A stretch of DNA of 58,887 nt, the filler included, from Platydemus manokwari (taxonomy: Eukaryota): assembly GCA_037951405.1 (NCBI GenBank). It is 5 parts of 5 records of this genome, joined end to end, with 100 filler letters (N's around TTAATTAATTAA, not from the genome) between each part and the next. Parts side by side here need not be neighbours in the genome. Positions count along the whole stretch, not along the records: positions 47,428 to 58,887 come from JBBMOY010664429.1; 4 more parts are not named here. The stretch is one strand, 5' to 3'. Shown here one piece after another: positions 10,879 to 58,330 of this stretch. How positions within the stretch are numbered: position 1 is the stretch's first letter; the number at the start of each line of letters is the position of its first letter. Below the pieces are notes generated by a model, which saw nothing but the letters and a program-made list of their open reading frames with translations, did not search any database and had not been told where the DNA came from. The translations under genes were made by a program, and so were the position numbers.

Positions 10879-10978
10879 NNNNNNNNNNNNNNNNNNNNNN
10901 NNNNNNNNNNNNNNNNNNNNNNTTAATTAATTAANNNNNNNNNNNNNNNNNNNNNNNNNNNNNNNNNNNNNNNNNNNN
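10879..10978. other. Assembly gap with artificial six-frame-stop linker (also at 20622-20721, 37746-37845 and 47328-47427; 10-N gap at 33105-33114)
   Basis: An identical 100-nt N44-TTAATTAATTAA-N44 block occurs four times. Confidence 0.98.
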
Positions 10979-19395: not shown

Positions 19396-20929
19396 TAGTA
19401 ATTTATTCAAATTTATTGATAATTAATTACTTTTTAAGAATAATAATAATAATCTATCGATAATCATTCAATTATATATTTTAAATTAAAAAAATATATT
19501 TTAATTCGTTCATTAATTATTTAAAATATATTCTCAGAATCAACATGATTTGGAGAACATTTGAAACGACAGATGTACATCATCTATCAAAAACTGACCG
19601 AAATATTTGAAAATCTCAAATCTATACTTTAATGAATTAAAAATATTTTTACTAAACAGTATTATCGATATAATTCATTCAATAACTTCAATATTTCTTA
19701 TCAATGCCAATATTTTCATGGACAAAATCCTCACCCAAAACAACAATCATTAACTTGAGTCGATTTTATCTTATAAAAAACACAAAACCAAAATTATATC
19801 TTATCAATATAAAAGTTATGAAAATTGCATTTCATGATTAAAAAGTAATTTTAAACAAATCAATTCCACTAGGAATGGTGGAGATATTTTTGGACAGTTT
19901 CAGATAATTTTAGAATTATTGATTCAACAGTAAATTCAACAACAAACAACGCAAAAAAAATCTTTCTAATAATTACAACAAATAGAAATGCATTAGAATA
20001 ATTATTAATGGGTTTTTAAGAAATGTTGTCTCTAATTTTTGAAATATTTCTTTCAAATAAAAGAAAATTACAATTTTTTTATCAATTTTTCAGATGAATC
20101 CATAATACAAGTGAGGAGAAACAGAATTGAAATAGCGTTAAAATATTTATGAATCATCATCATCATCACCATCGTCATTCTTGCAAAAAGGGAGAGAGGA
20201 TCGAAGACAATTTAAATTGCTGCATTGAATCGTATTTCTCATACTTTCTTTTCAAATCTGTCACTTTTCATAATCGATATCCTTATTCGCTTAAAATACA
20301 ACCCATGCTTCATGTTTATAAATGAATATTTTGATTGATTTGATCGACTGATCGAGATTATCAAACCAGTTTGTAGAAAGTAAACATGTCGTTTGTTGTA
20401 ATATAAAAAGTTTTGGCTAAAGAAAACCAACCTTGGAATGCTTAATATTTTTGTGATAAACTTTTAAATTTTAAACCTTCAAATATCTCTAAAAATCGAT
20501 AATATTCAAGGCTATCATGGAGAAATAAATGCGTTTTATCAAATTATATATATATTAGGTGTATAACCTTAAAATTTCGGTTTTTTTTGAAAAATATTTA
20601 TTTATTTAAAGTACATTTTGCNNNNNNNNNNNNNNNNNNNNNNNNNNNNNNNNNNNNNNNNNNNNTTAATTAATTAANNNNNNNNNNNNNNNNNNNNNNN
20701 NNNNNNNNNNNNNNNNNNNNNTGATATATTATACAGTTTGATTATATTATTAATTATTTATGTGTCAATGCATATCACCATTATAAATGGTAAAGCAAGC
20801 TTAAAATAAAAGTTATATTTGACATTTCCTACAATTACAAATTAAAATAATAAAAAACTGAAATTTAAATATTTGACATATGGAATACAACAAACTATAA
20901 ATTTGAATTGTCATTCAATGTTATTTTAA

Positions 20930-35838: not shown

Positions 35839-37012
35839 TTACATCAATATTTGAAGACGGAAGTGTTGTTGGAAATTACTGTAACGACTGTTTCTTAACT
35901 GAATGTAACGAGCTTCCAATGTTTTGTATTTCTTTTCTTGTGGTGTCATTGTTACTGGTTTAGCCAATTGGCCATATTTACCACATTTTACAAGACTCAT
36001 CTTAGCTTTATCAACTCCACTTGTTATAGCCAACCGATTTGTGTTGGATAATCCATTAAGATTTTGTTTAAAATAAACTTTCATGTTTCTATTTCCAATA
36101 CGTTTCCCATTTGGTAAAACAGCTTCAACCTGCATATCATTACCCTGAAAATATTATATTTAGTCAACGATTATTATCATTTTATAAGCATTTCAATTTA
36201 TACAAACTAATTTTATTATACACCCAGCAAAATAATTAACATTAAATTTACAATTGAATCACCAAGATTGGATACGGGCCTCGGCAAATCACTATAAAAA
36301 TCAGCTAGATCATCCCCATTACTTTCTAAATGAAAGTATAGTTGCATATGATTTAAGTCAAGCATGTGGTTCCTGACGCTATGGCGGTCATCGAATTGCT
36401 TATTACATTGAAAGCAAACATTATATTCATCCACTAAGGATGTTAAATATTCCATAAGTCCATCTAAATTGGAAATGTAATCTGGATATGGTAAATTAAA
36501 TTTATGTTTCTTCTTCATATGATCTAAATTTTTCTCTACTGTGTCAGAAGAAACATTACAATAAAAGCAATCAACAATACTAAGTGGTTTCACAACTTTC
36601 TCATCCTCCTCACTTTCGCTTTCCTCAATATATTCAACAATCATTCCTTCTTCTATTTCACTTTCGTTGATACTTTCACTCTCTGCTTTTAAATTTACAT
36701 CTTTCGATGACTTTTCCAGATGTTTTTTAGACTTCAAATGATTTTCGTACGTGTTAGAAGATTTAAAAACTTTATTACAGCAATGGTAATCTTTCTATAT
36801 AAAAAAGTAGACATCGTTTAAATATTAAAAATTCTAACCGGTGGAATTATTTGGTTAATCGAAATCAATTCATTTTGCTTAGCTTTGAAATCTTCATAAG
36901 TTATTGACTTTAAACCTACAGTTTCACGTCTTAAATTGTATATATGCCATTCAGATTTCACATGTTGTTTAAGATCAGGACATTCAAATTTACATACTAA
37001 GCACTTGTACAT
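35839..37012 (-). CDS. ZNF622: ZNF622/Rei1/Reh1-family C2H2 zinc-finger 60S maturation factor; 3 exons (37012-36839, 36794-36252, 36144-35839)
   Basis: Motifs include CLVC...HVKSEWHIYNLRR, NKVFKSSNTYENHLKSKKH, CFYC...NLDHMKKKHKFNLP, CFQC...VRNHMLDLNH, LPNGKRIGNRNMKVYFKQ and the C-terminal NFQQHFRLQILM. Confidence 0.93.
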
Positions 37013-39182
37013 CGTTTAATTTCTATAAGTATTATACAAACAAATTTAATAATAATACTTATTTAAGCTTAATATTAACATTTAATTGGAATTTTAGGGT
37101 TATGTGAAGAGATATTTTGATTTAATCTTTATATTTTTAAATTTTGCTTATGAGTTAATTTTGTAATTTAATTTTATGTATATTGTCTCAAAATTTCAAA
37201 TAATCCTTTATTTTTATATGCAAATTTAATTTTATATCATAATTGTATGAGTTAATTTTTCTTCATTGCTAGGAGTAAATGTCTCAGTATTGTGGATTCA
37301 TGAAGCACATTGAATAGTAAACAGTATTATGTTGACAACAGTTTTAAGATATCCAATAAACTTAAAAATTGTTTACTAATACACACCAAGATTTAATTTA
37401 TTTTCATCCAGTAAATATTCTTTGTAGGATAGTCACAAATCGATTTTGAATTGAAAATGAGTATCAATCGTAATAACAATAAATTTTATATCATAATGCA
37501 CTCAAAAATATTTGTGTTCAATTCTATGAAATTTTGTTTATCAATTTGAGAGAATAGTTTTAATCAAGTTTTAATCCCATCATTTCTTTTATTTTCAGCA
37601 TTGTTATCTATATAAATCTTTGATTCTGTAAATTTATATTTTTTGAATTATAGTAGACATGTTTTTATAAAATAATTTAATAAAACCCATTAATTATTAT
37701 CAAAACCCGATATTAATATTAACAAATTAAACCCATTAAATTTATNNNNNNNNNNNNNNNNNNNNNNNNNNNNNNNNNNNNNNNNNNNNTTAATTAATTA
37801 ANNNNNNNNNNNNNNNNNNNNNNNNNNNNNNNNNNNNNNNNNNNNTTAAGTTACAATCACATTATTATTATTTTCATAAATATTATTAAATTTATTATCA
37901 TTGAACAATTTAAATGTTGTTGAACATTTTCTCAAAGTGGTATTTAAGTTTTTTCTTAACTTTTTTCTTAACTAAAATTAACCAAAAATTAATGAGAGCC
38001 CACGAACTGGTTAGTGAAATAAGTATCATTATTTAGTAATGAGTTATTAATCACCAACAATATCAACATTCTCATATTCATTTAACAATTATCACATCAT
38101 ACTGACACACTGCATTAAAAACAACATTTAAATTATTAACATTGTTTTTGAAATACTTTGAGAAATTTATCAAATTCTTTTTTAATAAATCTTCGACATA
38201 CAAATGTTTTTGTATTTATTGAAAGATGTTTACCATTAAAAGCAACTCTAAAAATGTAGGAGAAGAATTTTTAAAAAATTATAAATGTCCAAATTAATTC
38301 GACAGAAAACAAAAAAAATTTCACAGGTTTAAATTTAAAAGGAGACCAAAATTTACTCAATGATAAATTTGTGATGTAATAATTATGTTATGTAATTGAT
38401 GAATATAAGCTTTTTCAAATAACTTATTTATTGTTTATGCTATGAGCTTATTAATAAAAGCTTTTAAAAAATTTTCAAACAAATATTTATTATTCATCTT
38501 AAAAAAAATCTTTGATATCATATTTCGGGTCTTCATATTAAAACGTCTTAGAAACCATAAATAACACGCTATAGTAATAGATGGTCCGTACAGTCTTATT
38601 GTAATATTATAGTTGGTCTTTAAAAATTCAAGAATTATTCAGCAACGCCTTCTGTTAAACATAAACCAAACTTCAGTTAACATGATGAATGTGATGTAAA
38701 CTAAACAGAGCATTAAATTAAGTAAAATATAAGTCCAATAATTAATTATTTGATCCTTTCCTTATTTATAAGATGTTAATAAGAATTTAAAAATTCAGCA
38801 TTCCCTAAATTTTCAACTTAATCCTTACAAACTCGACATTAAAATATTATCTATTTTATAATTTGAACATTAAACATGTTTTTTTATTTGATAAAACTGA
38901 TCAAATTAAAAGAAACCAAATAAATATTAAGATTAAATGAAAATATAAATACACATATTTTCATTACTAACAAGTAGATTCAAGTAATATTAATTCAATC
39001 GATGCTTTGTTTGTTTAAATAAATTATTATCACACAACAAGCAACACAAAGATTTAAAAAATTATAAATTTGCTATTTAGATAACTTTTGCGAATTTTAA
39101 TAGTTCTGTATAAAAACAGTTCAAGAAGAATAATCACTATAATTATTATTTATTGTCAACTCAATATCATCAAGATCAGGAT

Positions 39183-42100
39183 ATGGCTTATCCCCGCTCA
39201 CGATCAAATAACAGCTCGTATTCATCTCGAGAATATTCGTACAAATCTCAAGCAACAAATGATCAGCTTATAAATGATTCTCCATGGAAAAATGATAGCT
39301 CGTTTTCATCACCGCGAACCAATACTCGTTTTCATACAATGTCGTCTAATAAATCACCTAATACTCCCAACACAAATTTCTCTTCTAACTTTTATACCAT
39401 GAAAGAGCCAGATTTACATTGGCAAATCAATAATCCTTCGTCCGAGATTCACACTCGTGGTCGATCGAATTCTCCAAGCTCAATTTCTGGGAGCCACCGG
39501 ATAAATGCTTCTTCTCTGCCTCATCCGATGAATGAAGATCGAGATCAATTCTCAATTTTTGGATCTTTCAGAAAACAAAGAAGCGAGATTCGGACAAATT
39601 CTCACCGTCAGGAAATCTCTGAACGTCAAATAAGCGATTATCACAACTTACCCGTTAAGCAACAGCCTCAGCAACAACAAGTTCCTACAATCAATCTATC
39701 AACAAATTCTCAACTGCCCGTCAATTCTGAACTGCATTCATCCGGTTATTTCACTCCCAATTTGAAAAGCCATACAAATACACTGCTGGAATTGCTTAAC
39801 ATCGACGAGGTCGATAGCAAACCCACACGAATCAAACCTCTAGCGATGACCATCAGACCAGAAATTCAAAAGCCAAATATCACCAACTCACCACAGCAGA
39901 GAGAACCGGAGGAAATCCATTCGCCAGACGTTGGAAAAATCGAAATTCCACTTTTGAATCAAGAGCCTCTCACCAATGAACCGCCATCGAAAGATCAAAA
40001 CATTGAACGACTGAATAAGAATCTCGACAAAGCCAACGCCAAAATCAAATCACTCCAACACCACAATGAAGAAATGCAAAAACATTTGAAAAATCTTCTC
40101 ACCGAACGCAAACAGCTCATCAAACAAATCGAAAACATCGAAATCGAAGAAATAATCGAAGAGGAAGAAGTGCAAAAAGCCAAAGGCAATAAAAGTCCAA
40201 AACAAGACAACTCCAATCATCAGCCGATCGTGACGGTGAAAACCGACGACAACACCGTCGACAAGAACCGAATAACAATGTCCGATGTGCCAGCACTGGT
40301 GTTGAATAATTATCGGAAAGAAATCATCGAACAGGAGAGAGAAAAAATGGAATTGGAAAAACGAACTCTCATCGAAACATTAAACATCCAATATCAACAG
40401 CAACTCCATTCACTGAAGCGTGAACATGAATCACAGCGTGTCCCAGTCAAGCATGTCTCGATAATGAGTGGCGATAAGAAGAAATTCAATCAAACTGGTT
40501 CCGAAGTGGATTTTTCCCGATTAAAACCCGCTATGAGAACAATCGCTACCAATTTTCAACCCGTAACATCGACCAAGGAATCACAAAACGAATCGAGAGA
40601 AGTGAATAAAAAATTGGCCACAGATACCTACAAATCATTTCAGAGCCATATCAAACGATATCAACTGAAAACCACCAATTCACAAGAATCCATTTTCAAA
40701 CGCATTGCAAATTCCATCGAATCCAACAACCCAACGGAATTGTCGTCAATAATCGGCGAGATGATGTTCAAACCGTCTCGATCTGTTGAAATCACTGCGA
40801 GACCATTGATGATACCGAAACAATCGCAGACTAATATCGTTGAAGAACCACACTCGAAAATTGCCAAGGAAACATACAGATCATTCAAAAACCATATCAA
40901 AAAAAATGAAACCGTGACAACGAAATGGCATGATTCAGTCTTAGATCGTTTGGTAAATTCTTTGCATAACAACGATTCGGAAGGTCTGGCACGGTTGGTG
41001 GAAGAACTCTTATTCAAACCAACCAAATCGATTGGCATCAATTCCGTTCCGACCAATTCTCATAAGATAACTCAAACACATCACCATAATTTTGGCAATG
41101 CTATTTTTGAAACCAATATCCTTGCTGATAAACCAACAGTTGAGAAATTATCTAAATCGATTGCTGTCAGTCCAACTTTGGTCCATAAAGGAACTCAGCC
41201 AGAAGAATCGTATTATTTCGAAACCGGAACAATGACAGATCATATCTTCTATCGTAGCCAAGGTGTTATGACAGCTGGTGATTACATAAAATCTGCCACT
41301 TCACCGCAATTCGATACTGAGTCGTATGTGACTAAGAGTTCTAATATTTCCAAACAAACCAAATCACAGACCATTATCATTCAGTCGGAATCCTTCAATA
41401 ATCCTTCAAATGGAGTCAATAATTCAAAACTGGAAGAAAGAACAAATTCTCAGAATCATAATAAGATTCGATCAACCATGCCTGAAAAAATATACCACGA
41501 GAAAATAAACGATCAAGTTTTCAAGGATTCAAAAGATGTGAGAAACATCAAGACGAATTTAAATGAAAAGTCTGAATCCAATGAGAAAAAAAATTCCTTT
41601 AGCTCGTCTGGATCCAAGACACCAAAAGAAGTTGAAATAAAAAGTTCTAAGACATCCAAGCATTCTAAGAGTGATCCTAAACAAATTGTAGAAGTATCTG
41701 AACAGAAAATCGAGGAAACGGTTCAAATTCTAACTGCTCACGTTGATAAAGACCAGAAACTAAAAGAAGAAACGGAAACGATGGTGGAATGTTGGGAAAC
41801 TATATCAACGTTAAAAGATGGAAAACTAATCGAAAAAAAGGAGAATTATCGGGATAAATTAATTAGTTCAGATCCGGATGAAATACTCAAACATCTCGTA
41901 TCACATACTCATGATCATCATCCAAATGAAACGTCTCCAATAAATGCTGCACTCACATTTTCACTTCTTTCTGGCAAGGATTCTACGAGTGTATCAACGA
42001 ATCTGATCACTGAATCAACAAAACATCCTGACAATGAAGGCATCAATATTCCTATCATATCAAAGATGGATACAAATTCGAACTTGTCACTTCAGTCAAA

Positions 42101-45100
42101 TTTATCATTTACCATTCCATTATCCAAAATCGATGAGTCAAATCCTACAAGTCCTGATTCAAACCCTTTAGAAAAGATTGAGGATATTAAATCACAAAGT
42201 CACATGTTTAAAGATGAGAGACAACTCGCCCCTGATAATATTAAGCATATTCCCATAGGAATTTCTGATAAAAAATCGATCGGTGAATCGTCTGGTCAGT
42301 ACAATGAATTCTATGAGAATAAAACCAATATTTCTACTGATTCGTCAAAGAATAAACCACAGATACATAATGTTGGCATGACTTCCGAATTTACCGAAAA
42401 TGCCAACAAAAAGCATCCTAATTTATCATCACCCAATGCAATATGGAATTCAATAAACGAAAACGATGACGTTGATTCGATTCCCGCACATGGATTTAAG
42501 CATCTGGATTCACATGCACCGAAATACCAATATGGTAACAACATCTCAACTAATATGGGAAAGGAATCCACAGAATCTGTACAGTACCATACCGAAAGAA
42601 TAGAATACAAAACATGTGTTATCAGTGAATCTTCAAGAGGAGTCGGAAAAGAAATCGTCAGTCCAGTCAGTTCTGGGTCATTTGAAAATTCCTACAATAA
42701 ACCTCAAACTACTTCATCTTCAAATATATCAATTTCTCAAACTTTAGATGGGAATTTTACGAAACGTTTAGAAAATCGAGAATCAATTCAATCGAACACA
42801 TTCAAGGATGAGAATGACAGAACCTTTTCACCATCAATGTCATCTCACACACACCAAACTAGTTTTTGTAAAGATTCGACTGATAATTCAAATCGTCAGT
42901 ACAGTGAAGGTTTCGAGTGTGACACAAGCACGTCTTTAGACTCATCAAAAGTTTTCTCAAAAGGAGGAATCAATATTCCAATCAACTTGGACTATTCATC
43001 ATCAAGTACTCCTTTGACTGATAATATGGAAAATAGTTCGTCCAAATCTCCAAATATTGGTTCAAGCCCATTAGAGATTCTTCATCACATAAAATCGAAT
43101 GCATATAAGGAAAGGAAATTCGTTCCCACCAATACCGCTCACACGTTCTCAATAAGTTCTGGTAAAGAATTCACTGATGGATCGTCTCGACAATACAGTG
43201 AAAGTCATGAATCTATGTCTAACAGGACCTATCAATCATCGAAAGATATAATAAAAGATGTTCCCATTGATCCAATGAATTCTAGAAGAAATCTTGAAGA
43301 GAGATCCGAGACAAATTCATTTTCAAGCTTTTCCATGTCACCACAAAATGTCTTTGTAAATCCTTCAAAAAACATCGCAAATTTGAAAGCAGACGTAAAT
43401 CGTGGTGATGATAAACGACAATTCACACCTAGTAATGTTAGTCATACATTTTCTAAGATATCTGGTAAAGAATCCAATGATGGGTCGTCTCGGCAATACA
43501 GTGAAAGCTATGAATTCAAGACCAACAAGACCTTTCAATCATCGAAAGATACAGTAAAAGATGGAATCAATGTTTCCATTGATCCAATAAATTCTAATAG
43601 AAATCTTGAAGGGAGATCCGAGACAAACTCATTTTCAAGCTTTTCAATGTCACCACAAAATATCTTTGTAAATCCTTCACAAACAAACGAAAATTTGAAA
43701 GCAAATATAAACATAAATCGTGGCGATGATAGACGACAATTCATTCCTAGTAATGTTACTCATACCCATTCTAAGATTTCTGGTAAAGAATCCACTGATG
43801 ATTCCACTCGGCATTACAGTGAGAGTTATGAACAGCAAACAAGTATTTCTGTCACTTCATCGATGGGAATGCCTCATGAAACCATTAGCATTCCAGTTCA
43901 TTCTGACTCTTTCAACTATTCGTCTACGAAATCAAACATCAGCTCATCAACGATTCCCATATATAAAAGTTCGGGAGATATAATTTCATCGAAATATGAG
44001 AATATCTCGAAAATTGTAACTCAAATGCCTGTTGTAACTACAGAATATGTGACAGCAATCAGTGAAGAAATTAGCTCCCATGGCAATGGATCCTTTAGCA
44101 CCTGTGAACGAATGAAAACAAACTCTTCCGATAATAATTATAAAACACAAGGTTCCATTGGGATTATAAGCTCGCCGCTTTCAGCCGCATCTTTCTCTTC
44201 CAAATCAAGCAGTTCTACGCCAAGACAAATAATTTCAAAGAAAGAAACATCTAATTCCCATTCACATTCCCGACATAGAGACATTCATATTAAATCCAGC
44301 TCTTCGAGTTCTAAACCAACAGTGATTAGAAGATCGATAAAAGTCCACAATCCACAATCAACATCATCATATCAAACAGAAAATGTCAAATTATTTCATC
44401 AATCTTCACAAGCAGAACACTGGAGAACTCAAAAAATCAATCCAGATGGTACTGATAATAACTCGGCATTCATTGGATCAGGAAGCAGTGCGTTTTATCC
44501 AATAATAGATCAGAATAGGACAGCGTCATCGAAAATGGATGACAATGTGAACAACTTAGAGTAATTGATTTTATCTTTATTGATTTTCTATTATTTTAAA
44601 TAAAATTATCTAATTTTCTATAAACAATGATAAATCAATGGTTTATTGAATTTCTAATAACGTATAAATTCATCCGAAATCATTAAATTGTATTTGGAAT
44701 ATTGGAATGAACGATTTTCGATAAACTTTTTAAAAGAAGCTTCAAGATTAACGGAATACAAATCATTTTATACATTATATAATAACAATGATGTCATCAT
44801 AGATTTTATGAATGAAAATTATCGTTTAGGCTTTCAATTAATATAATGACCAGATGCTATACTGATGGAATGTAATTGATATTCTCGCTTAATCAATAAA
44901 ACAGTGACCTTGAGTTAATAAATTGGCATTTATTGTTAATAAAATATTTACTAAAGAACTTTTACAGATACACACGCACAGACACACACACATTAAGTTT
45001 TTGATATGGATTTGTGTTTCACTTGTAATGTGTGCGTGTACGTGTGTGTACCTTTAATTTATTGTTGTCGGGTAGCCTGAATTATTTGTTTAAAGCACAT

Positions 45101-46396
45101 TCTAATGTGTTTTCATTGAATTTAAATCAAATAAGTTTATTGATTTTCAGAATCATTTCTAAATGATGTATCAATCGTCAACAAACATCATCAATAAAAT
45201 TTTGGTATTAACAAAATAAGTAACTGAGCGGTGGCAAATGTTACTGTGATCATTTTGCATTCGAAAAATGATAAAAAGAAAAGTTTTTTAAGATTTGTGG
45301 AGTCAGACTGCAACCCAGATTTTTGTAGGCACGTTTTGTGGCGACGTTTTGGCTTATTGAGATTGATTATTGAAAGGAAAATAAATAAATAAAAGCTTGG
45401 TTGATAGATAAAACTATAATGGTATATCAAAAGTTATCTGATCAATATTTTCAGACGATTTTAGCTTTATTGTGTTGATTTTACCTGGGAGCTTTCTACG
45501 TTTTTAAGGATTCTGGTTTTTTAAGTAATAAAGAGAATTATTAAAAAGTTTCTTCAAATGTTTTAAAGCACTCCACTACTCATACGACAACCATGTTCGG
45601 TATTTGAAATCATTTCTCTGTTATAGAATACTGTTGCCGGAAAACATCTTCCAATTCGCCAGTCAAGTGTTGGTATGGCTGAATACAAATAAATATTGTT
45701 CGATCAATGATATCGAAGATATACCCACAGAATTGGTATTGTCTTATTGATTGGTGTCAGATTTATTATGTATTGATTAATCCAGATTGAAGCGAGTAAC
45801 ATTCTCACAGATTGGTGGGTAGATATGGTAGTGAAATTGAATTTCAGCCAGTTGGCTTCAACTATTCAATATTTAATGTCAACATTCAGTAAGAATTTTG
45901 TGAGATTTCTCGTCACAAATCGTGATCAACAGGTTAGATCATTACTGAATGGAAGATTAGGAAATAATTGACATTGATTCAGGGAAATACATGCCTTCAT
46001 TATATAGTCGGTCATCAGTGTTGGGAATCGTTTTCTGTTCTCTTTGCCACCGGTTTCGTCGATCCAAATATTTACAACGTCCAAGGTTTCACAGTATTGA
46101 TGCTAGTAGCGACCTTGCAGGTTTCCGATGAGATTCTGGGAGCTCATATTCGCAGATTGACTTACAATGCCAAACTAAATCTCCAATCAAAAGAACAAGG
46201 TCAAACAGCTCTTTACCTAGCAGCATTGCACAATAATGATAACACAATCACTCTGCTTTCATCTCTTGGAGGCGATATCAATATTCCAGACAATGATGGC
46301 AACACACCTCTTATGGTTGCAGTTTCTAAAAATAATGTCAGGGCGGTTAAAGCTATCCTCGCTATCCCCAGTGTTTTAATTGAATTACAGAACAAG
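39183..46396 (+). CDS. KANK: KANK-family ankyrin-repeat scaffold protein; giant exon to 44560, then exons 45627-45735, 45786-45932 and 45983-46396; terminal exon not found
   Basis: The 1803-aa ORF has a coiled coil and KANK-like RSVxV/KSIGI motifs, and ends at a phase-2 GT donor (44561) that splices in frame to exon 45627. The C-terminus DWWVDM...FLVTNRDQQGNTCLHYIVGH...NVQGFTVLML...QSKEQGQTALYLAA...DNDGNTPLMVA matches the KANK ankyrin region. The first ATG is at 39183; the true start may be upstream. Confidence 0.8.
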
Positions 46397-46429
46397 GTTA
46401 ATCATTTTAATTATTTTTACTCATCGTCG

Positions 46430-46540
46430 GTAATAATAATAAATTATAATGAATAATAATAATTATTATTATTATAAGTAATAATTATAAATAATAATTA
46501 TAAATAATAATGAATAAATAATAATAATAATAATAATAAC
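46430..46540 (+). repeat. Degenerate (AAT)n microsatellite
   Basis: Visible AAT/ATT runs in the KANK intron. Confidence 0.9.
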
Positions 46541-47999
46541 ACAAAAATGTCCGGAATTACGAGATCAGAGCTTTTAAATTTTGGAACAATGAGACTTAAC
46601 TGATTTCATTGATTTATCCATTCTCAAGGCTCATTGAAGAAATTCGAAAATAGGAGAACTCACAAAATATTTTTATATTCAATGGCATCACCACGGAAAC
46701 CAAACCTAATAAAAATATTAAAAATATATTCTAGAAAAAAATTAAAAAGTACCTTACCGTGATTACCTTCTGAATTTTTTTTGTTTTATTTGTTGTACGT
46801 AATAAATTGGTATTAAATAGTGTATATCGAATACTCTGTCTCAAGAATGATGATTTTCAATAATAGACTTATTCCAATATTTTATCAGTCAGTGAATTTC
46901 CGAAACACGTTTCCAAACATAGTAATTTTCATCATTTTAATTTTGATTTATTATTTATAATATTATTGATTTTATTGTGCTTGTTAGTAAGTGAAAATAT
47001 TCATATCATATACTGTTGGTATAAAGGTAACTGATATTAATGTTGGTTTGGTGTTCAATCCGATATTGATGAGTAGATAAAACTATTAAACAAGTACATC
47101 AATAGGCCTAGTGCTGTGGATTCAAATGGTTGGTTCAGCAGATGCTAAAATCAATAAACATTATAATTAATTATTGTACTTTTTCTTACAATTTTTATTG
47201 ATCAGTGTTAGTTACCAAAATTTCTGCATTTCTAATATTCAAATCAAATCTCATATTAACAACAGAACAAAAAATCTATTTGCCAATACATCAATTTTCC
47301 AATATATTTAAAATATTAAATTTAAATNNNNNNNNNNNNNNNNNNNNNNNNNNNNNNNNNNNNNNNNNNNNTTAATTAATTAANNNNNNNNNNNNNNNNN
47401 NNNNNNNNNNNNNNNNNNNNNNNNNNNATTTTCAGTATATTCATACTAAGGGGTGCATTGACAAACTTTTAGCACACAAATTCAAAGTTAAAAATAATAT
47501 TTAAAATGAAGTTGATTTTCAGTTTACCATTTTCAATTTACCAAAACTACTCTAGAAATTTATTGAAAACATATTTTTATATATAAATATTTTATTATTG
47601 TTTTTTTAATATTGATTACAATGTTGCAATTTTTTCTGTGGTTATAAACTCTGTTTAACTAAGCATTTACAGAACATGTAATTATTTTCAAAATTAATTT
47701 ACTTAGTAGTGAGATTGAGTTAAGTTAATGTTATGAGATTGTGGGTATTGAATCGAGATAAACATTTCTGTACTTCGATTTTATCATTTCAACTGGTTAC
47801 AATTGAGTTTTAGAAATTGAATATTGCTGAGTGAGATGAATTTCTGCAAAAAGAAAAATAAAGTTGCACCTTGGAACCTTTGTTTTGACACTTTGAACAT
47901 TTGCATACCTACACAGCCAAACAGGCAATCAGCCAATCACAATGAAGTTAGATGGTAAATTACAATTAGAAAAAGAGGCATACCTACACAAAACATACT

Positions 48000-48243
48000 T
48001 GTAGGGATTGACAAATTTCACTAATGTAATAAATTAAAAACGCCGTAAGAACACAAAAACAATTATAAAATCAAAATATGATACAATGACACAAAAAATA
48101 CACACAGGTCTCAAGTATAAAAATTGATGTCAAGGTGGACAATTGCTAGTTGAAAGTCAAGTTTGGGTTAAGATTTTGCAGTTCGTATATTGATTAATAC
48201 ATCTTCGTATTGGAGTAAGTTACTTATTGTTACTTACCCAACA
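48000..48243 (+). repeat. Putative 5' LTR of the env-bearing Gypsy element
   Basis: It starts TGTAGGG and ends CCCAACA (6/7 inverted match) with an internal TATAAAA at about 48116. It is followed by a PBS-like TGGTGAGC at 48250 and then gag. No second LTR is available for confirmation. Confidence 0.5.
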
Positions 48244-48336
48244 ATTAATTGGTGAGCTCTCATTCGAACATCAGAGAACCAGGATTCAGGGAATCAATCC
48301 TCTTCAGGTCAATAACAAATTCAACACCAGATGTGA

Positions 48337-49122
48337 ATGGTTTCACAAGCCGATTTTCCTAGTTGCCAAAAGCTTCTTGTCGAACAGTACGGTGGAGACC
48401 TAATTAATTTTGTAGATTTTATGACGGATTATTTTATATGTGCTTCCGCATACAGTTGGACTGAAAGGACGACAATCCAAAGACTTCCTCTTTACTTAAA
48501 AGAAGCAACAAGAGATGTCTACAACCAAATCGACAGACGAAACATTGTCCAATCGACAGTAATAAAAGACACCTTATCAGAGAACTTAATTAGTGGTGAC
48601 GTTGGCCGCATTATCTGTTAAAAATTTTTCCACACATCGCAGAAACTGTAGGTGTTTTTGTTAACACTTGAAGAAAAAGCATTGAGACCGAAATCGGATT
48701 GGCCAGGACAAACGAGAAAAGTGGTTGAGTATCAATTTTTGAAATGAGTCACATCAGTACAGCACTCAAGATAGTCGATTATACCACCTAAGATGAACTC
48801 ATAAAAAAAGCTATGGGAGTGGAAATTAATTCCACATAAATAATTCGCTAGCATGTCACATGCCACCGAAACAGATTTTCTTCTATGGGTAAAATTGAAA
48901 GGCCATCACCCACAAAATCTATCGATAATAGCGGTCCAAAATCCACCCGATCATTCACAAAATATCGTCAATCGTCGGTCAGCGACTCCAAAGAAGCAGC
49001 TAGGGGTGACATGCTTTAAATGCAATCGCATTGGACACTATGCCAATCAAAGCAAATTTGCATTTGCTAGTGAGAATCTATCGAAACCTCGAAGTAGTTC
49101 CATTTCGAAAATTGAATTTTAG
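48337..49122 (+). pseudogene. Gypsy gag relic
   Basis: The segment QYGGDLINFVDFMTDYFICASAYSWTERTTIQRLPLYLKEATRDVYNQI fits the Gypsy capsid pattern, and a CX2CX4H knuckle follows (last Cys lost). Confidence 0.8.
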
Positions 49123-49779
49123 TGAAATAGTGAAAACTTTGGAAATTATCAAGGAAAATATATCAATGTTTTGTAATTTGAGTGAGTTAATATATTTGTT
49201 AGTACCTTATATAGAACAATGTTTACTTATTAATTCTACTTTCATTAGTATTTTAAGGTTATGTGGAAAAGGAAGGTTTAAATCTATCTCAGCGTGAGAT
49301 CAGTTTGATGAAATCAGGAGTCGATATGGAGAATGTCAAAGACCATCGGTGTACAAAGGTAAAGAAAATCAGTTGAAAGATTTCGGAAAAGTTGTGAAAC
49401 GAAGCAGTTATTATTTTATCATATTGTGGTCAAAACTTAGATGATGATGGATATTTGTTGAATTACGGATGTGTTTCCGGAAAAGCAATTAAAATTAATG
49501 TTAAAGTTCATTACGAACAAGGCATTGTTAATGACAACGTAGAATATGAACGAACCAATTTGCATAAAAATAATGTTACGTACAGCATTCAAGATGCAGC
49601 ATTTAATTTCATAAAGGTTTTGATACTTCTAATAATAATAAAAATTATACAGACTTTGTTATTAAAAAGGAAAATATGTAATTTCATGAAATCGAACTAA
49701 TTAATAATAAAAATAAAATATATTTAATAAAATCAAAAAATAAGAAAAGTAAAATATTAAGAAGTGGAATGTTATCCTT

Positions 49780-51788
49780 AAACTTGGAGCAAAGCAATAA
49801 GTTTTATGATGATGATAATGATATTTGGTATCGGAAATGAGGTTAGAACTTTAATTGCTTATGATTCCTCTAAAACAGAAATGTGACAAATTTATTAATT
49901 AATGAATACAACGGAATGGCTAGAAGCATATCCGATGCAAATCTCTAGTGGAGAAAATGAGCATTATTTTTTATATCAGGAATCGAATTTTATTAATGTG
50001 CAAGTAAAAGAATGTTTCGCTAAGAAGACAATTTTTGTTTTCATTATGGTAAATGGAGTCATATCGTTGATCATGATGAAGGCGATCCTCAGACCATTAG
50101 CTATAGACACTGACAACTGTGAAGTAGCTTTTCAAACGAAAATTAAAAATAGACATCGAAAATTGATTATCTGCAAAAAGTGGCTACATCATGAAAGAAT
50201 CCATTGCAGTTAGAGGCTCTGTAACAGGCCATGGAGAATGTAAAGGAGAACTATATAAATTTTCTGGACAAATTGTCGATAAAGATGTAGTGATGGAAGA
50301 ATATCCCTTCGAAATACGACAATGGTAAGGTGTATTTGATGTACTGAACGGTCAAATGCAAACTCATCCATTCTGTAACTCAAAATACATAAGTTGCCAA
50401 ATAGATGAGTCAGTATTAGTATATAACGTAAGGTCACAAGACCATAATTTGGTATTTTTAAAAGAAACTAATTTAATGGAAGTTAAGGGCGAAAGAGTAA
50501 ATGAAGTTATTTACAACTTGCCTTCCGATCGAACACCTAAGGGCAAGATAAAGGCTATTTCAGTAAGAAGGAAGCGAACCTCAAACGTTTTGATATCAAC
50601 TTGATTGAGGAAGGAATGCGCTTTAAAAGAAAAGACAGTTACCAAACGTGGTAAATTAGTGTATCAGACCAACTATAAAGGTCTTTATGTATCGAAAACA
50701 AAACCGGAAAGTGGTAAGGAAAAAGTTCACAACGGTGATATAAAGTTAACACAATATTTTAGTAATAAATTAGAAAATTTCATTTCGGTCAAAATATAGT
50801 TGCTAATATGCATCAAGAAGTTATATTAAATGATTGCAAACTAATCCGTGAAATTCTTCGCAATATAACAGCGGTGGTGTTTACAAAGCCAAATGCAGTA
50901 GCGCCTATGCCTGTTGTCGAAAATGGAATATTTGGTTGCGTTTTAGATGAAGCACTATATAGCTACAGATGAAAGGGAATCTCAGTATAAATAATGAAAC
51001 ATGAAACATGCTTAAACGAACTACCAATCAACGTCGAAAGAGAACTATATTTCATGGAACCGATAACTCGAATCATCTTGGAAGAAGAAACGAAACAAAT
51101 AAGGATTTAGAATGCAGACATATTTTAGCACCGCTATACAGCTTAACACTCGATCAATGTATTGTGCCACCAAACAGAAATATAGGTAAACCATCTGAAA
51201 AATTAAAACTAACTCAATTGAAATACTGAATAAATTTCACATCTCTAAATAATTTATCTGCTACTGGAATGTATTCACCAGAGGGCTTGGAGGAAGCCAA
51301 ACGTAACCTACGTACTACTACTATTCCCATTAAAGAGAGAACGCATAATAACCAAAGGGAAGCTTTCAAGCCAATTACGAATACTTGCTAGATCCAGATC
51401 ATTACAAAAAGCAACTCTAAACACCATGCGAAAAATTTGGATAAAATTCATATTCTTCGGACTAGCCTGTGCTGGACTGATAGAAGTTTTATTAGCACAA
51501 GTACCATATACTTATCGTCTATATAGCATTGTAGGAGGTTCGTGGGAATTAATTTTAGGTTGTATCCCATTCTTAGCTAAATTTTTTATAATCAATCATC
51601 AGTATGAAGAAATGAATAATATTAAATCTAAAATGAGAAATAAAAGGAAAATAAGATTTAGTACATCTTTGATTTCAGAGGATACTCTACTAAATGAAGA
51701 AAATAATGATTTTAACTCAAGGGTGATAAAAATATTATCACAAATTCAGATAAATCGATACCAAATTTGGAAGACTAGGGAACATTAA
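49780..51788 (+). pseudogene. Chuvirus-like (class III, gB-type) envelope glycoprotein relic
   Basis: Collinear motifs across frames: hydrophobic signal then LIAYD; FLYQESNFINVQVKEC; HYGKWSH; GSVTGHGECKG; FCNSKYISC; YQTNYKGLYV; DIKLTQYFSNK; NDCKLIREILRN...KPNAVA; TCLNELPI...FMEPITRII; LSATGMYS; and the membrane region WIKFIFFGLACAGL...GGSWELILG. Confidence 0.8.
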
Positions 51789-51805
51789 AACTAGGGCGTT
51801 TAGAA

Positions 51806-53068
51806 ATGGAAAACAAATCACGTTTTAATGATTTATTTTTACCACCAACATTTAAACCACCACCACCATTTTACCATTTAACTGAATTAAAAGAGATGAA
51901 ACCAATTTTAAAGGAAATCCCAGAAATAAAAAGAATAAATTGGGGTGTAGAGAGAAGAAATCAGCTTGGGATACCTAGCTCACATGCATGTATGACATTC
52001 GGATATAAAGGCCGAACAATTTCAACACGGATGACGTTAAATAACAGGCAGGTTGACGAAATTATTGACTTAGGGTCAAACATCATTATAGTATCAAGGG
52101 ATTTCTACCACAAAAGGAAGAAGAAAATGTAGTTTGGGGAGAAGAAAGCATAAAACAATATCAGGTAGGAAGGACTATTGTAAATATTGGAATGACTGGT
52201 AAAACAATGTAACACATTGTGCTTATAATGGATCATTGCCCATTTAAATGTCTGTTAGGAATGGATATGCTAGAACGACTAGGAAACAGTATTAGATTTT
52301 CTAACAGGAAATCTTGTCGAAGTAACGTCTAGAAAATTAATGTATAAATCTAATGAAGTATATTTAGATAGTATGTTAATTATACCACCACATTCAGAGA
52401 TCGTATATTAGGCTAGCACACCTGAAACAGAAAAAGAATGTTTATTATTCGAACCAAAATAACAATTCATACAAAAATATGGAATACCAGTTTGTAATGA
52501 ATTAGTATTGATTGACAATCAAAAGATTCCAGTTAGGTTATATCTAACTTTGAAAATAAAATGGTGACACTTGGAGTATTATAAACTATATATGATATTG
52601 ACCCGAATATTAGGAAATTACCAACAGAAAATTATGATAATATAAAAATTGACAGTGAAGTTTTAAATGAAAATCAAAAATTAAAATTGTTAATTAAATT
52701 ATATAGTGATATACTAGCTAAACATGAATTCGATGTAAGTAGGACTCACGTGGTTGAACATGAAAACCATTATTACCAGGTAAGAAGACCCCAATCGGAA
52801 TGAGATCGTACTGTATACCGTACGCGCACTTGGAAGAAAGTAAAAGATATAAACAACAAATGCTTGAAAATAGCATAATAAGACCTAGTTTTTCCGCATG
52901 GGGATTACCAGTGGGTGTTGGTGAAAAAGAAAGATGGTAATATCATATGGTGTGTGGACTATCGAAAATTAAACGCAGTCACTAGACGAGATACATATCC
53001 ATTGACCCTCCTACAAATTATTTATAATAAAAAGGAAATTTGTTCAACTATTGACTTAAACAAAGGGC
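51806..53068 (+). pseudogene. Gypsy pol relic (protease, spacer, N-terminal RT); truncated
   Basis: A degenerate D-x-G protease site is followed by the LLGMD motif and QMLENSIIRPSFSAW, KKKDG, CVDYRKLN and DTYPL. Similarity ends at about 53068, before YxDD. Confidence 0.85.
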
Positions 53069-54599
53069 TTATTCCCTGAGTTTCATTGCTCACATTTTCT
53101 GGTGACGAACTAGTTCGATTCAATGATCAATAATTAAGACACTTATTCTATCTTGAAATTAATCATTCGATGAAATTTTGAAATAATTCTTGTTGATAGA
53201 TTTTTATTCATTAAATATACGTATTGTAATTTCCAAGTTCTTTATATATTGGAGAGTTGATTTTCTTGTACTTAGATCTCTAAAAAAATTATACATAATA
53301 TATATATATATAAAATAATAATGAAATAAATTTCAAATTTTTTTACTTTTATATCAAGCACTCATTATTGCTCATTGAAATTCCTCTGCCCGGGAGGTGA
53401 CGGCAATCTAAAAAATGAAATTAAAAAAATAAATATACAAAAAAGATCATTTTATATACATAATTGGCTACACAGTAATACAGCCGCTATAACCGATCAA
53501 TCAGAACTAACATGGATCTAGGATTTCAATTTGACAAAATACATGGCTACACTACGACAATTACAGAGCCTCAGAAATTAAAATACCGATAAAAAATTCA
53601 TCAAAGGTAACTTTAGTAAATTAGACCACATATTTTTTTTCTATATTTTGCTTAAATTCTATACAAATTAACTTTTATACCCTCTGCTTTTTCCTTAATG
53701 ATGATTGTTCCAGTAAGAAAATGTGGCGAATATTAATATTTTTTTTCATAACCTATTTTTGTCAATTTACCTCTTTCAGTTCCTTTCATGAACTGTCGAT
53801 TCTTTTTTCACTTGATCGGAAATTTCTTTTATCCATTTAATACAGTTAAATATTTCCTTTTCTAATATTTGATTTTCCTTATTTTTGATTGTAAAGTTTA
53901 AATCTATTTATATATGCAAATAATTTCGATATGAAAAACCTACAACTGTGCTATTGTTATAATGAATAGAACAAGAAATCGTTGACTGGTATAGTTTAAT
54001 TCTCAATACAATAATTCTTATTATCTTCTATTTATTATGGGTTAATTAATTAGTGCAATCTGTTTTAGCACTTTATGTTCATTAATAGCCTCATATTTAT
54101 ATTATCATAAATACCATATTAAATTCTCATTTTTATTTAACTCTTCGGATGTTTCTATTATTATGATTGCCAATAGTACTCGAATTATTCTTTTGGACTT
54201 ATTGATTCCACTTGACTAATTTGTGTTGTTATTCTTTAACTTCTTGACTTAAGTTAGTTTTCTACCGACATTTTAATTTCTTCTTTAATTGATTTTCCAC
54301 TAGATTATGTCTCTGCAGAAAACCTGAATGACAGTTAAATCGAATATTCTTAGCCAATGTGCTCAGGTTTAGTGATTGTGTTTTGTTAATTGAGTTTTTG
54401 CTTTTTTGGTTGTCTACACATTGTATATTTTATAGTAATTTTATTTATATTTTCTTAATTTTATAAACATTTTTTTGTTTTTTTGCTATTACCTGATATA
54501 TTCTGTTTATTTATTTCATTAATTTATTATCCTACTTCAAATAAGGGAAAATAAAAATTCGATCTATTCATGATAGTGGTTTCAACGTCTTCTCGATAA

Positions 54600-57500
54600 A
54601 TTAATATTCAAATATCATATTCATAATATCTCTTGAAATTAATAGTATGCATGTTATATATAACAAAACTCCAAAACTCCATTAATTGAAAAATTAATTC
54701 TGAATATTTAAACAAGCATCTCAGATATTATCTAACTTTCCTATATCATTGTTTTTGAAGTTATCCTCATCCACTCAATTCTTCTAGTCTTCTTCGTGGT
54801 AATCAAGAACCAGTTGATGCGGATTTAGAATTTCAAAATTCTATATCCGTTCTCTATTGCCATGTGTGGTCCTTTCATCATTGAAACTTCCTCCCATCAG
54901 CAAAAATATGACTGCTTGTGGTTTCCGTGCAGAATCTGCTTAAAGTTATGACAACTGATTTTAGATGCTTTTCTGTTTCTTTGATGATCCGGTTATGATA
55001 GCTTGTTTTATTTAACCGCAATGCAGGCATATAAATTTGACTTCCAAATATGTTGTTAAAGGCGATTATCGAATTGAACTCTGATACACTGTGTTAATAC
55101 GAAAATACAAATCATAAGGTTGTTTCTCTGATGTCAGCATAGTCACTATCATGTCCCGAACCGTTTTGATCATTCTTTCAGTTAAACCATTAGCCTGATG
55201 TTGATATGGTGAATTAAATTAATGTTTTATTTTAAAACCTGTAGCTAATTCTCATTGTTTTATCTTCAAAACTTGCTACTATCGATGAGTATTGATTTTG
55301 TACAACCGTACCTATAAATCCAACAAATTATAATTGAATTGGTTATGCTAGCATCATCTTGTCCAGTAATTGGTATTAAATTTAACAATTTATCGACTAT
55401 CAACAATAACTAATAAATGCTACGTTCTGTTTTTAAATTTTTCAAAATGAACAACATCAACAACGATTTGTTTGATAAGGTTGAGTTCTTTTCGTGGAAT
55501 CTTAAATTCTTTTCTTCCAATGATTTGAACCTTTTACGTTATACAAATTTCACATTTTTGAATTGCATGCTCCAAGCCATGATTAACTACTAGTAAATAT
55601 TCTGAATATAATTAACCAATTTATTACTGTTAATATGACTCAACTCTTCATGGAGCTATTTTGTTAATTTCTGTGAATGTGATTTTGATATAACAATTAA
55701 TTTGTTTTCATTCTCATTTTACGCCACAACCTCTGCAAATAGCGCGTACTTCTCTAAATGCGGGAAATATTTATTTTTCTTTATAGCTGAGTTGACTAAA
55801 GATTCCAATTTATATAGCCATTTTTAAATAAAACTGATATTGGTATCAGACCGTTGGATTTTTCTTAATTCATCGTTACTAGTAATTGGGTGATCAACAA
55901 CATTGATTAATCGAGTTTTGGACTTGCACATAATTTTGATAGCACAAGTGTATTTCCATGATAATTCGCTTACGATACAGGAAATAGAAATTGAATCTCA
56001 ATAAGTTTGTAAACCAAGTTCAAAACTGAAAATTTATCTTTTTAATGGTTTTTCTCATATCCGTCAATGCTTTGTGATTAATTCGAGCTACAAACCCTTT
56101 ACCAATTAAATAATGTTAAAAATGCGTAATAAATTCGTCTACAACCAAAGATTTCTTTCTCATAACGTAATAAACTTTTTCTTGACTTTTAAGCGTTTTA
56201 GAAGTGTTAGCATTTATTTTCATTTTCTTTACTATCCATCTGAGTCTTGCATGATGTTTCTCAATTGTTCTTCCATAAGCCAATATATCGTCCAGATAAA
56301 CAAGAATAATTTTATAAATTCGAATTCTGAAATTTGTATTCATGAACTTCTGAACATTTATTGGAGCAGTACAAATTCCAAAAGCCAATCTATTAAAACA
56401 AACTTTCTTGTCCTTGTGCTGAAAACAGTTTTTGAATTGAAATTTTTAAGCTCAACTCTATAGAGTACGCATAACATAAATCTATCGTTAAAAAAACTAT
56501 TGCATAATTTTGAGAATCCAGTAACTCTTGAATACCTCATACCGGAAAAGAAAATTTTTCGGTTTGTTCATTTAATTTCCGAAAATTTAGGCAGATTCTT
56601 AGTGATCCATCCTTTTTGGAAATTATTACTAATGGTGAATTTCAATGGCTTATATATCGTGCAATGACATCATTTCCTAAAAGATTTTCTATCATATCTG
56701 GATTTTGTTCTCGATTTATTAGTTACAGTTTAGGATTTTGTGCAAAGATTCAAATTTAATTTGTATCTCGTGCTTTATCAGGTTTGTTAGCCCTTAGTCA
56801 CATCGAGAATCCATAGAAATGGAACCATTTTTTGAATACACTTTCTGAATGAAATGTGATTACTAACAGCAATGCTCTTAATCGCTATTTCAATTTTATC
56901 TTCATCACTGTGCTTCCTGTATACATGCGTTGTATTGATCACTTTCATTCGATTTCATATTCCGTATTTCTTCAATATATCGATTCCATCAATAAATGCT
57001 GGTGAAATTTATTTTACCACAGTAATGTCCATAAGAATGTATTTTATTTCAGACTATCTTTTCCACGCAATATTGGAATTTATCAGAAAAATTATGAAGT
57101 AATTTTAGTTAGGACTTCTTGATATGAGAATTTCCAATAAGTTCCAAGTTTTCTCTATTCATTACTGTTATTGATTCTCATCACATTTCGATCTTTTCTC
57201 CATTGCATTCCATCAGTCTCTATAGTTAACCATCTACCTTATACATCTTCAGACAACTCTTCACATCTCACTCTTCTAGTCCCAATCTATTTCTTGCTTT
57301 TAAATATCCTAAGTGAGTCATCTTCACTGCTAAGATTGACGGAAGAGGTTGGTACTAGTTTTTCATCTTCAGATGATAAATCATTCAAATCTCAACTTGT
57401 TCTTCAATATGTATGTTAAGAACTCTATTTGAACGATCATCTTTGTATTTCTTGATTAAATAACATTCTCTAAACGAATGCCATACTTTATCGCATGCCC

Positions 57501-58330
57501 TGAATTTATCTTGAATTGAGCAATTAAACTTCTTATTTATAATTTGTCTACAACAAAAACAAATTCCGAACTTCAGAAATTCATTTTGTGGTGTTGGTTT
57601 TCCTCTGTACAAATTATAAAACTTAATGGAAATCATCTTTATTTATTGTTGCTTTCTCTTGTTCGGTGATGTTGTTACTATGAATTTCAAAATATCTCCT
57701 GGGATCATTTCATTTTCTATTTGAATTGTGCTTAGATTAGATCCTTTTCGACATTTCTTACACGATATCTCTGAAACTGTTCTGATTTTTTCTTAAGACA
57801 TTCGAATAGCTCTACCTAACGATATTCATGGGATTCATTAGATTATTTTTTCCATATTAATGGCCATATGTCTCTATTCTGCTCTCATTTGTCATTGTTG
57901 GATCCAATATAAAAGATTCTTTGACTTTGTTGCTTCGCAAAACAAATAGACTTGTGATTTCCTCTATTGGTATCTTTTCTAAAACCTCTGACTAGTTTGC
58001 TTACAGTAGCTCATAGCTTCTATGTATATATATCAAGGTTTGTTACACAAGCATGTGGCTTTAATGCCATCACCAAACCATAAATAGAACTCTATCATCG
58101 ATTGGCGCATATACACGACAGATCTATTAAAGGAATGAGATCTTGGAGGTGGATACTTGTCTTTCGTAGTCGGTAGAATTATGTACCTTATTCTTTTTAA
58201 TGATCATTCCAATGATCTTTGTTTCTGTTTCTGCTTTATCTTTCGGCTGCTGATGCCGCTGTGACTTGATTATCGACTTTGGCATTAAGTTAACGCGTAA
58301 TATTGTGATTGAAAATTATAATTTTGATAT
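54600..58330 (-). mobile_element. Second degenerate Ty3/Gypsy element (gag-PR-RT-RNase H-integrase), no env seen
   Basis: Two knuckle-like motifs (CFCC..., ACDKVWHSFREC, ~57460-57565), RT MAFGICTAP...VYLDDILAYG (56116-56388), RNase H-like KGFVARINHKAL (~56065-56100) and integrase SPYQHQANGLTERMIKTVRDM (~55150-55213). Boundaries are approximate. Confidence 0.85.

Follow-up and report, generated by a model that had tools for sequence, protein, structure and literature searches.

Does this locus hold a Ty3/gypsy retroelement in which a gB-like envelope glycoprotein (env) is built in between gag and pol, and would such an arrangement be new? The window, as the whole stretch of 58,887 nt that was analyzed is called here, carries on its + strand the order gag, zinc knuckle, ubiquitin-like piece, gB-like glycoprotein, protease (PR) and the first half of reverse transcriptase (RT). 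Apart from the ubiquitin-like piece, this is the series given in the initial annotation, and homology and profile matches for each part uphold it. The gag-env-pol arrangement is real but already in print for flatworm elements, which the decayed copy closely resembles. Its possible novelty, raised earlier, is ruled out by planarian Burro elements, in which, as published in 2019, env lies in frame between gag and pol (PMC6431247), and by the catalogued GAG-ENV-POL errantiviruses of nematodes, bryozoans and flatworms, whose env is of gB type (PMC13524379). With a probability of about 0.88 we interpret the locus as a decayed, 3'-truncated Ty3/gypsy LTR copy with a gB-like env between gag and pol, which is a member of the planarian-type GAG-ENV-POL lineage already in the literature (compact relatives of Burro, Smed errantivirus 1/2 being nearest) and sits in a host that is likely a flatworm. 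The element is dead, and its kind is known. Its parts are the following.

48000-48243, + strand: candidate 5' LTR, unproven (TG...CA, 6/7 inverted termini)
48250-48261, + strand: primer-binding-site (PBS)-like tract starting TGG, ca. 90 nt upstream of gag
48379-48717, + strand: decayed gag, capsid region
49009-49050, + strand: degenerate CCHC zinc knuckle
49350-49508, + strand: remnant of a likely ubiquitin-like domain
49788-51641, + strand: decayed gB-like (class III) envelope glycoprotein gene
51872-52287, + strand: env-to-protease spacer and decayed aspartic protease
52337-52764, + strand: PR-RT linker common to env-bearing relatives
52803-53070, + strand: N-terminal part of Ty3/gypsy RT, end of the copy

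The gag remnant was recognized by tblastn to the N-termini of env-bearing relatives (P0017, E 6e-7; P0053, E 9e-5) and by a gag profile built from three relatives (iE 3e-12). The zinc knuckle scored 20.9 bits against Pfam zf-CCHC, for which the cut-off is 20.8, and is without its last Cys. Between gag and env, the position it has in relatives, the ubiquitin-like piece was found with a profile from four relatives (12.5 bits, iE 4e-5; next match -0.9 bits). None of 60 shuffled windows reached 12.5 bits, the maximum being 3.8. The ubiquitin name itself comes from weak leads, a Pfam ubiquitin match in P0053 (E 0.03) and Atlas scores of 0.80-0.82. This remnant had been overlooked initially. The element profile search gave nothing above shuffles for the helical domain that precedes the ubiquitin-like domain in relatives, nor for a Bcl-2 remnant, and an Atlas search with the ORF at 49398-49697 returned no usable match.

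The env gene survives as five pieces; its frame changes at least four times, and it carries eight in-frame stops. It matched Pfam PF24664 with 63 bits (E 1.8e-17, cut-off 27). Four of the five pieces match this family in profile order, covering positions 6-125 (E 4e-4), 321-422 (E 1.6e-13), 424-491 (E 7e-6) and 521-608 (E 0.024); the fifth (50170-50796) has no Pfam match and is colinear with relatives at 27-33%. Colinear tblastn matches of env to env-pol polyproteins reached E 2e-67. The N-terminus is hydrophobic, and hydropathy indicates a C-terminal membrane stretch. The sequons NTT, NIT, NFT and NLS, the C-terminal hydrophobic stretch and the DYRKLN/YPL motifs of RT were all found as annotated. 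The proposed series of glycoprotein motifs held in part: GECKG, CKLIREILRN, CLNELPI, PITRI and WIKFIFFG are present, but the sequence reads IAYDS instead of IAYDC, YFSNK instead of YxNxK, and GMY instead of GIY. In place of CGxxSH we found YGKWSH, in another frame, and the description as Cys-rich was overstated (13 Cys in 607 aligned codons). Domestication of env is ruled out, as the gene is broken.

Similarity to class III fusogens, one of the tests that the initial annotation had set for its reading, was found both at the profile level (the 63 bits to PF24664) and by structure prediction for a relative. The predicted model of the P0014 env (pLDDT 77.9, pTM 0.56) gave herpes gB in all 40 rows listed by Foldseek, with a best E of 5e-14; TM-scores to gB were ca. 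0.2-0.35 by query length, and the fold is that of the relative and not of the window. Hydrophobic peaks flank the ectodomain on both sides in P0014 and P0081. As modeled on the relative, the env is a gB-like class III protein, predicted to be bounded by a signal or membrane segment at one end and by a transmembrane helix at the other.

Downstream of env, the spacer and aspartic protease were detected by tblastn to P0029 (E 1e-10) and by a protease profile (iE 5e-7 and 0.007). The PR-RT linker matched a profile of the linkers of four relatives (iE 6e-9 and 1e-8), which gave no comparable match on the neighboring env-less element; it sits where Burro has a dUTPase-like domain, a name that for the window comes from position and the paper alone. 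This family-shared segment was likewise missed at first. The RT piece, DYRKLN...YPL, is of gypsy type and fits positions 2-93 of 211 of the relatives' RT profile (iE 4e-14 and 5e-5). PR is followed by RT in the window, and the complete PR-RT-RH-IN series is present in relatives P0013, P0015, P0027, P0043, P0078 and P0081. The closest solved structure to the P0081 pol is Ty3 Gag-Pol (E 2e-128). The relatives' pol is Ty3-like, and the Pao peptidase family, which we take to be a marker of BEL/Pao, is absent from their Pfam matches.

The copy ends inside RT, a 3' truncation that the earlier description did not include, and a profile search gave no + strand match for RNase H or integrase. From gag to the start of RT it spans only ca. 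4.5 kb. All parts are decayed. PMC13524379 requires intact ORFs for an element to be listed as intact; here env is broken by stops and frame changes, gag and pol also contain stops, and RT is truncated. At the 5' side, the termini of the annotated LTR-like segment fit an LTR, but the LTR was not confirmed: a TG...CA-type terminal signature occurs at 294 places on both strands of the window, so that a call based on it is no better than chance, and a second copy of 48000-48243 is absent from the window. The missing second LTR is expected after 3' truncation. The PBS-like tract matches, by eye, 10 of 12 letters of the PBS listed for Macrostomum errantivirus 2; the window contains no tRNA gene for comparison.

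A phmmer search with env gave 67 matches, and in seven of the nine best a protease follows env in the same chain (E<=0.001). Sixteen proteins, mostly long phmmer matches, were scanned for domain order. Env is followed by PR in 10 of the 16 and the chain continues through RT and RNase H in five; a gag mark lies upstream of env in three, and env downstream of RT or IN was found in none of the 16. P0029, which shares 63% identity with the window along 78 aa at the C-terminal end of env, continues from env to PR without a change of frame. For the gag, ubiquitin-like piece, PR and PR-RT linker of the window, the matches are in each case to these same env-bearing relatives. Judged from these sequences, env is integral to the family, since env and then protease stand in one chain in 10 of 16 scanned relatives. 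The earlier proposal was right in that the lineage is Ty3/gypsy and has, upstream of pol, a class III (gB-like) fusogen as an integral part. In relatives env and pol share one chain. Further searches were less productive: the P0014 env gave 5 matches, a word-based search of proteins that started from a single env piece 0 of 56 candidates, and a search for related loci via single proteins 0 of 40 pattern matches in JGI metagenomes and none in IMG/VR.

A glycoprotein phylogeny had been suggested as a check. In trees with 16 sampled glycoproteins of 570-860 aa, only one named virus being among the sampled rows, two window env pieces were placed separately. A split with 100% SH-aLRT support put both together with the retroelement envs, apart from the sampled glycoproteins. 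The label chuvirus-like is correct at the family level (PF24664), but the env groups with retroelement envs and not with the sampled chuvirus-like glycoproteins.

That another gypsy lineage captured a gB-type fusogen separately, and merely resembles the planarian elements, appears highly improbable. Although GAG-ENV-POL elements are not one clade (PMC13524379), the window env retains 42-47% identity to Smed 1/2 despite decay, against 32-38% for Smed 1 or 2 versus Smed 3-6 in the alignment rows shown, and the ubiquitin-like piece and PR-RT linker lie at Burro positions (PMC6431247). Even less probable is a mosaic of different elements' pieces, nested or mis-assembled side by side. The region is a graveyard in which a second decayed gypsy on the - strand faces the element, and the stretch occurs in only one public run, possibly the source of the sequence, with no RNA run listed; yet there is no N gap from 47428 to the window's end, the parts follow one another in the same order and at the same spacing as in intact relatives such as P0081, and the - strand neighbor has no real DNA match to the element (one 18-nt match). 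The idea that the - strand pol is the element's own inverted 3' half was rejected: that pol contains the same RT stretch over again, and it has no real DNA match to the element. Least probable, and already largely refuted, is the independent insertion (EVE) of a chuvirus glycoprotein into an ordinary env-less gypsy copy: PF24664 is a Monjiviricetes fusion family, the 570-860-aa glycoproteins among the weaker matches include one from a thrips virus, and in arthropods the EVEs of Jingchuvirales are often found among gypsy fragments (PMC10084718), but the best matches are env-pol polyproteins, with which both window env pieces group at the 100% SH-aLRT split, a close relative reads env into PR in frame, and the gag, ubiquitin-like piece and linker that flank env have their matches in this family too.

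For a planarian-type GAG-ENV-POL element, the ancestor would have encoded a single polyprotein, Gag - ubiquitin-like - Env - PR - linker - RT - RH - IN. Its Env ectodomain would enter the ER by way of an internal signal sequence, while the C-terminal membrane helix would bring PR-RT-IN back to the cytosol. The cuts in the chain would be made by signal peptidase and by the protease of the element itself, and budded particles would likely fuse with neighboring cells through the Env trimer. The window copy is incapable of any of these steps because stops and frame changes occur throughout and half of RT is missing, as are RNase H, integrase and the 3' LTR.

A flatworm is the likely host, and an insect host is improbable. 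The ZNF622 exon gave best matches of just 34-35% identity, which do not inform on the host. We consider it unlikely that the planarian Smed-type single-polyprotein enveloped gypsy lineage is represented here in another animal phylum. A non-flatworm host would make the element more important: it would imply an older origin of the lineage or envelope-mediated transfer between phyla, and would conflict with the host-congruent picture of PMC13524379. With its host named, the decayed copy would be one data point on how widely the planarian-type GAG-ENV-POL lineage is distributed. Movement between cells via a gB-type env is a question for the whole kind, of which naturally intact, multi-copy members are already catalogued, and cannot be addressed with a decayed copy.

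Anakin, attributed to Dezordi et al. 2020, is reportedly a BEL/Pao element with a chuvirus glycoprotein in mosquitoes, and nematode and bryozoan GAG-ENV-POL errantiviruses are said to have been described by Sacco et al. 2022. Anakin and the Jingchuvirales G EVEs (PMC10084718) have the same glycoprotein superfamily, PF24664, as the window env. Anakin is BEL/Pao, whereas pol here is Ty3/gypsy, and the env stands apart from sampled insect and viral glycoproteins. A Jingchuvirales EVE would be expected to fall within a group of virus glycoproteins and to have no tie to pol; the trees and the env-PR fusion in relatives place the window env otherwise. The nematode and bryozoan errantiviruses have the same gB type with env upstream of pol, are placed in other pol clades (PMC13524379), and by eye are unlike the window env in the domain I-II rows shown.

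In the planarian giant gypsy Burro/GYPSM1, a gag with CCHC knuckle is followed by a ubiquitin/SUMO-like domain, then by an env (with mononegavirus glycoprotein matches) and PR, and a further domain separates PR from RT (PMC6431247). In the window these positions, before env and between PR and RT, are filled by family-shared segments whose domain names come from weak matches or the paper. Burro ORF1 is ca. 4,900-5,100 aa with MATH, BIR, BCL2 and ankyrin cargo (PMC6431247), whereas the window element is compact, a Bcl-2 profile gave no match, and the element ORFs scanned gave no MATH, BIR, BCL2 or ankyrin Pfam match. Decaying Burro fragments have been noted for Dugesia japonica (PMC6431247).

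The nearest known elements are Smed_errantivirus_1 and _2 of Schmidtea mediterranea (Platyhelminthes C1a, HSV/gB-type), which have the same gene order and env type (PMC13524379). They are intact, with 45 and 215 copies, whereas the window copy is decayed and truncated. In an ungapped hand count on one env domain only (domain I-II, window 50170-50493), 51 of 108 residues were identical to the Smed_errantivirus_2 row shown and 45 of 108 to that of Smed_errantivirus_1. The best stored database match over the same 108 residues reached at most 39/108 (36%), versus 47% for Smed_errantivirus_2. QTHPFC occurs in both Smed rows shown and in no stored match, and the motifs QTHPFCN and GKWSH are common to these rows and the window env. 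For this one domain, as far as the published rows extend, the window env has the sequence type of the Platyhelminthes C1a clade.

AT-rich and eukaryotic, the window carries host genes interrupted by introns. Three-frame translation of its plus strand between 48000 and 53200 revealed a heavily decayed Ty3/gypsy element with the following features:

48000-48243, plus strand, candidate 5′ LTR (starts TG, ends CA, 6/7 inverted terminal letters)
48397-48717, plus strand, gag (iE 3e-12, profile made from relatives alone)
49009-49050, plus strand, zinc knuckle (Pfam)
49350-49508, plus strand, segment between gag and env, likely ubiquitin-like (12.5 bits, profile made from relatives alone)
52031-52287, plus strand, protease (PR; profile match)
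52337-52764, plus strand, PR-RT linker (profile match)
52803-53070, plus strand, reverse transcriptase (RT), positions 2-93 of 211 (profile match)

The gag-env-pol order proposed in the initial annotation is real: zinc knuckle, env matching PF24664, protease and RT follow in series on the plus strand, and no assembly gap lies inside the element. Since profile searches gave no plus-strand match to RNase H (RH) or integrase (IN) in the window, the copy is 3′-truncated. It is non-functional. For the LTR-like segment noted initially, terminal letters and position fit, but its terminal signature occurs 294 times in the window (both strands counted) and a second copy of 48000-48243 is absent from the window. 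At 48250, 3′ of this segment, a TGG-starting tract agrees by eye in 10 of 12 letters with the listed PBS of Macrostomum errantivirus 2. By position, the LTR is a plausible but unproven candidate.

The env gene is preserved in five pieces, all colinear on the relatives' proteins (tblastn, E to 2e-67) and separated by at least four frame changes (tblastn). The Pfam family PF24664 (Monjiviricetes fusion family) matches four of the five with profile order kept (spans 6-125, 321-422, 424-491 and 521-608 of 653), and env read as one frame with X at stops scored 63 bits, where the cut-off is 27. Among the 607 codons of the aligned segments, 13 encode cysteine; 8 stops and the sequons NTT, NIT, NFT and NLS are also present, all four sequons as originally described. 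Several members of the motif series reported with them are exact, but IAYDC, CGxxSH, YxNxK and GIY are altered in form.

A phmmer search against 1.84 billion representatives returned 67 matches, six with E < 1e-30, and 16 of the 67, mainly long ones, were scanned for domains. Env precedes an aspartic protease in a single chain in 10 of these 16; the chain continues through RT and RNase H in five, a gag mark lies upstream of env in three, and env downstream of RT or integrase was found in none of the 16. Env-PR fusion occurs in seven of the nine best phmmer matches; of the other two, P0017 has a weak PR match (E 0.002) and P0014 terminates just past env. Two cluster members, P0078 and P0081, have the complete env-PR-RT-RH-IN series in one chain, and the best solved-structure match of P0081 is Ty3 Gag-Pol (E 2e-128). 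At the C-terminus of env the closest match is P0029 (63% over 78 aa), in which env continues into protease without a change of frame. On sequence comparison, the flanks of env belong to the same family as the env-bearing relatives, and it is colinearity with the relatives that makes a mosaic of pieces improbable.

Several protease copies per chain were seen in the env-bearing P0011, P0015, P0078 and P0081 (up to seven Pfam stretches in P0078), and P0013, P0015, P0078 and P0081 carry an extra hydrophobic-flanked region beyond integrase. NCBI lists P0013, which is a complete animal retroelement polyprotein (env-PR-RT-RH-IN), under a Flavobacteriaceae MAG, a label that likely reflects host contamination of the MAG bin.

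The score of the 49350-49508 segment compares with a maximum of 3.8 bits in 60 block-shuffled windows, none of which came near, a figure somewhat favoured by the choice of the four relatives' segments for the profile after a likeness had been seen by eye. Two weak leads point to ubiquitin (Pfam E 0.03 in the relative P0053; Atlas 0.80-0.82), and the segment is likely ubiquitin-like. The Bcl-2 and helical domains of the relatives gave no profile match above shuffles in the window. Weak Bcl-2 matches (E 0.001-0.2) stand immediately upstream of env in P0012, P0014 and P0053, as in the giant planarian Burro elements; the window copy is without them.

In the relatives, gag or env is joined to pol in a single chain, and hydrophobic peaks flank the ectodomain on both sides. 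In the intact ancestor, Env would have been translocated via an internal signal sequence, and a membrane helix would have put pol back in the cytosol. Cellular and element proteases may then have cleaved the chain, and a gB-like trimer may have merged budded particles with other cells.

The class III fold was examined on an AlphaFold2 model of the env-bearing relative P0014 rather than of the window env (39-row alignment, pLDDT 77.9, pTM 0.56). All 40 matches listed for the model were herpesvirus gB. The TM-scores were low: the best match (E 5e-14) had 0.34 by query. For env trees, cluster members and host proteins were left out beforehand; 68 stored proteins matched the P0014 env, 33 with wide coverage were retained, and two window env pieces were placed separately. 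Both pieces group with all 11 PR-fused envs (split SH-aLRT 100%), opposite 16 glycoproteins of 570-860 aa that include two proteins from beetles and one from a negative-strand virus of thrips. The chuvirus-like character assigned to env holds for the PF24664 match but not for the tree position. The trees, which were quick and midpoint-rooted, with a flagged long-branch join and one named virus sampled, speak against a recent chuvirus capture of env and give no date.

Other features lie elsewhere in the window. A second decayed Ty3/gypsy pol (55099-56850, minus strand; RT iE 5e-19, RNase H, integrase) is placed tail to tail with the element, and the matches there belong to this separate pol. 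It shows no real DNA match to the plus-strand element, no env match upstream within the window, and a possible gag remnant near 57400-57600. A plus-strand host gene at 39114-46456 (a 1,816-codon open exon, then ankyrin repeats) is presumably KANK-like from its layout. DEAD/helicase-C exons at 22868-29617 (plus strand) resemble HFM1/MER3, and a ZNF622/Rei1 exon lies at 36216-36794 (minus strand; best matches only 34-35% identical); introns look short, ~45 nt by eye. A 165-nt inverted pair (94%; 2265-2429/6500-6664), a small repeat dispersed in both orientations (1213, 7751, 16484, 16839) and a tandem array of a 17-nt unit (19015-19234) are likely MITE or DNA-transposon remnants. The four 100-nt gaps (10879-10978, 20622-20721, 37746-37845, 47328-47427), each N44 + TTAATTAATTAA + N44, are an artificial six-frame-stop linker, not biology.

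The gag-env-pol structure is real, its kind is already published, and this copy is dead. A flatworm host is likely, given how close env is to Smed_errantivirus_1 and _2 and given the host-congruent clades published for such elements; an unlikely alternative is that this lineage lives in an animal outside the flatworms. PMC6431247 gives the Burro order as Gag, MATH, ubiquitin/SUMO-like, BCL2, env, PR, dUTPase-like and RT, and PMC10084718 concerns Jingchuvirales EVEs of arthropods. According to PMC13524379, HSV/gB-type GAG-ENV-POL Ty3/gypsy elements occur in Nematoda, Bryozoa and Platyhelminthes, with nine flatworm rows tabulated (six from Schmidtea mediterranea), host-congruent clades and an entry mechanism stated as unknown. 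Against the env rows printed there, an ungapped hand count over window positions 50170-50493 gave 51/108 identical residues for Smed_errantivirus_2 and 45/108 for Smed_errantivirus_1, both published gB-type elements of S. mediterranea, compared with 39/108 for the best stored database match.
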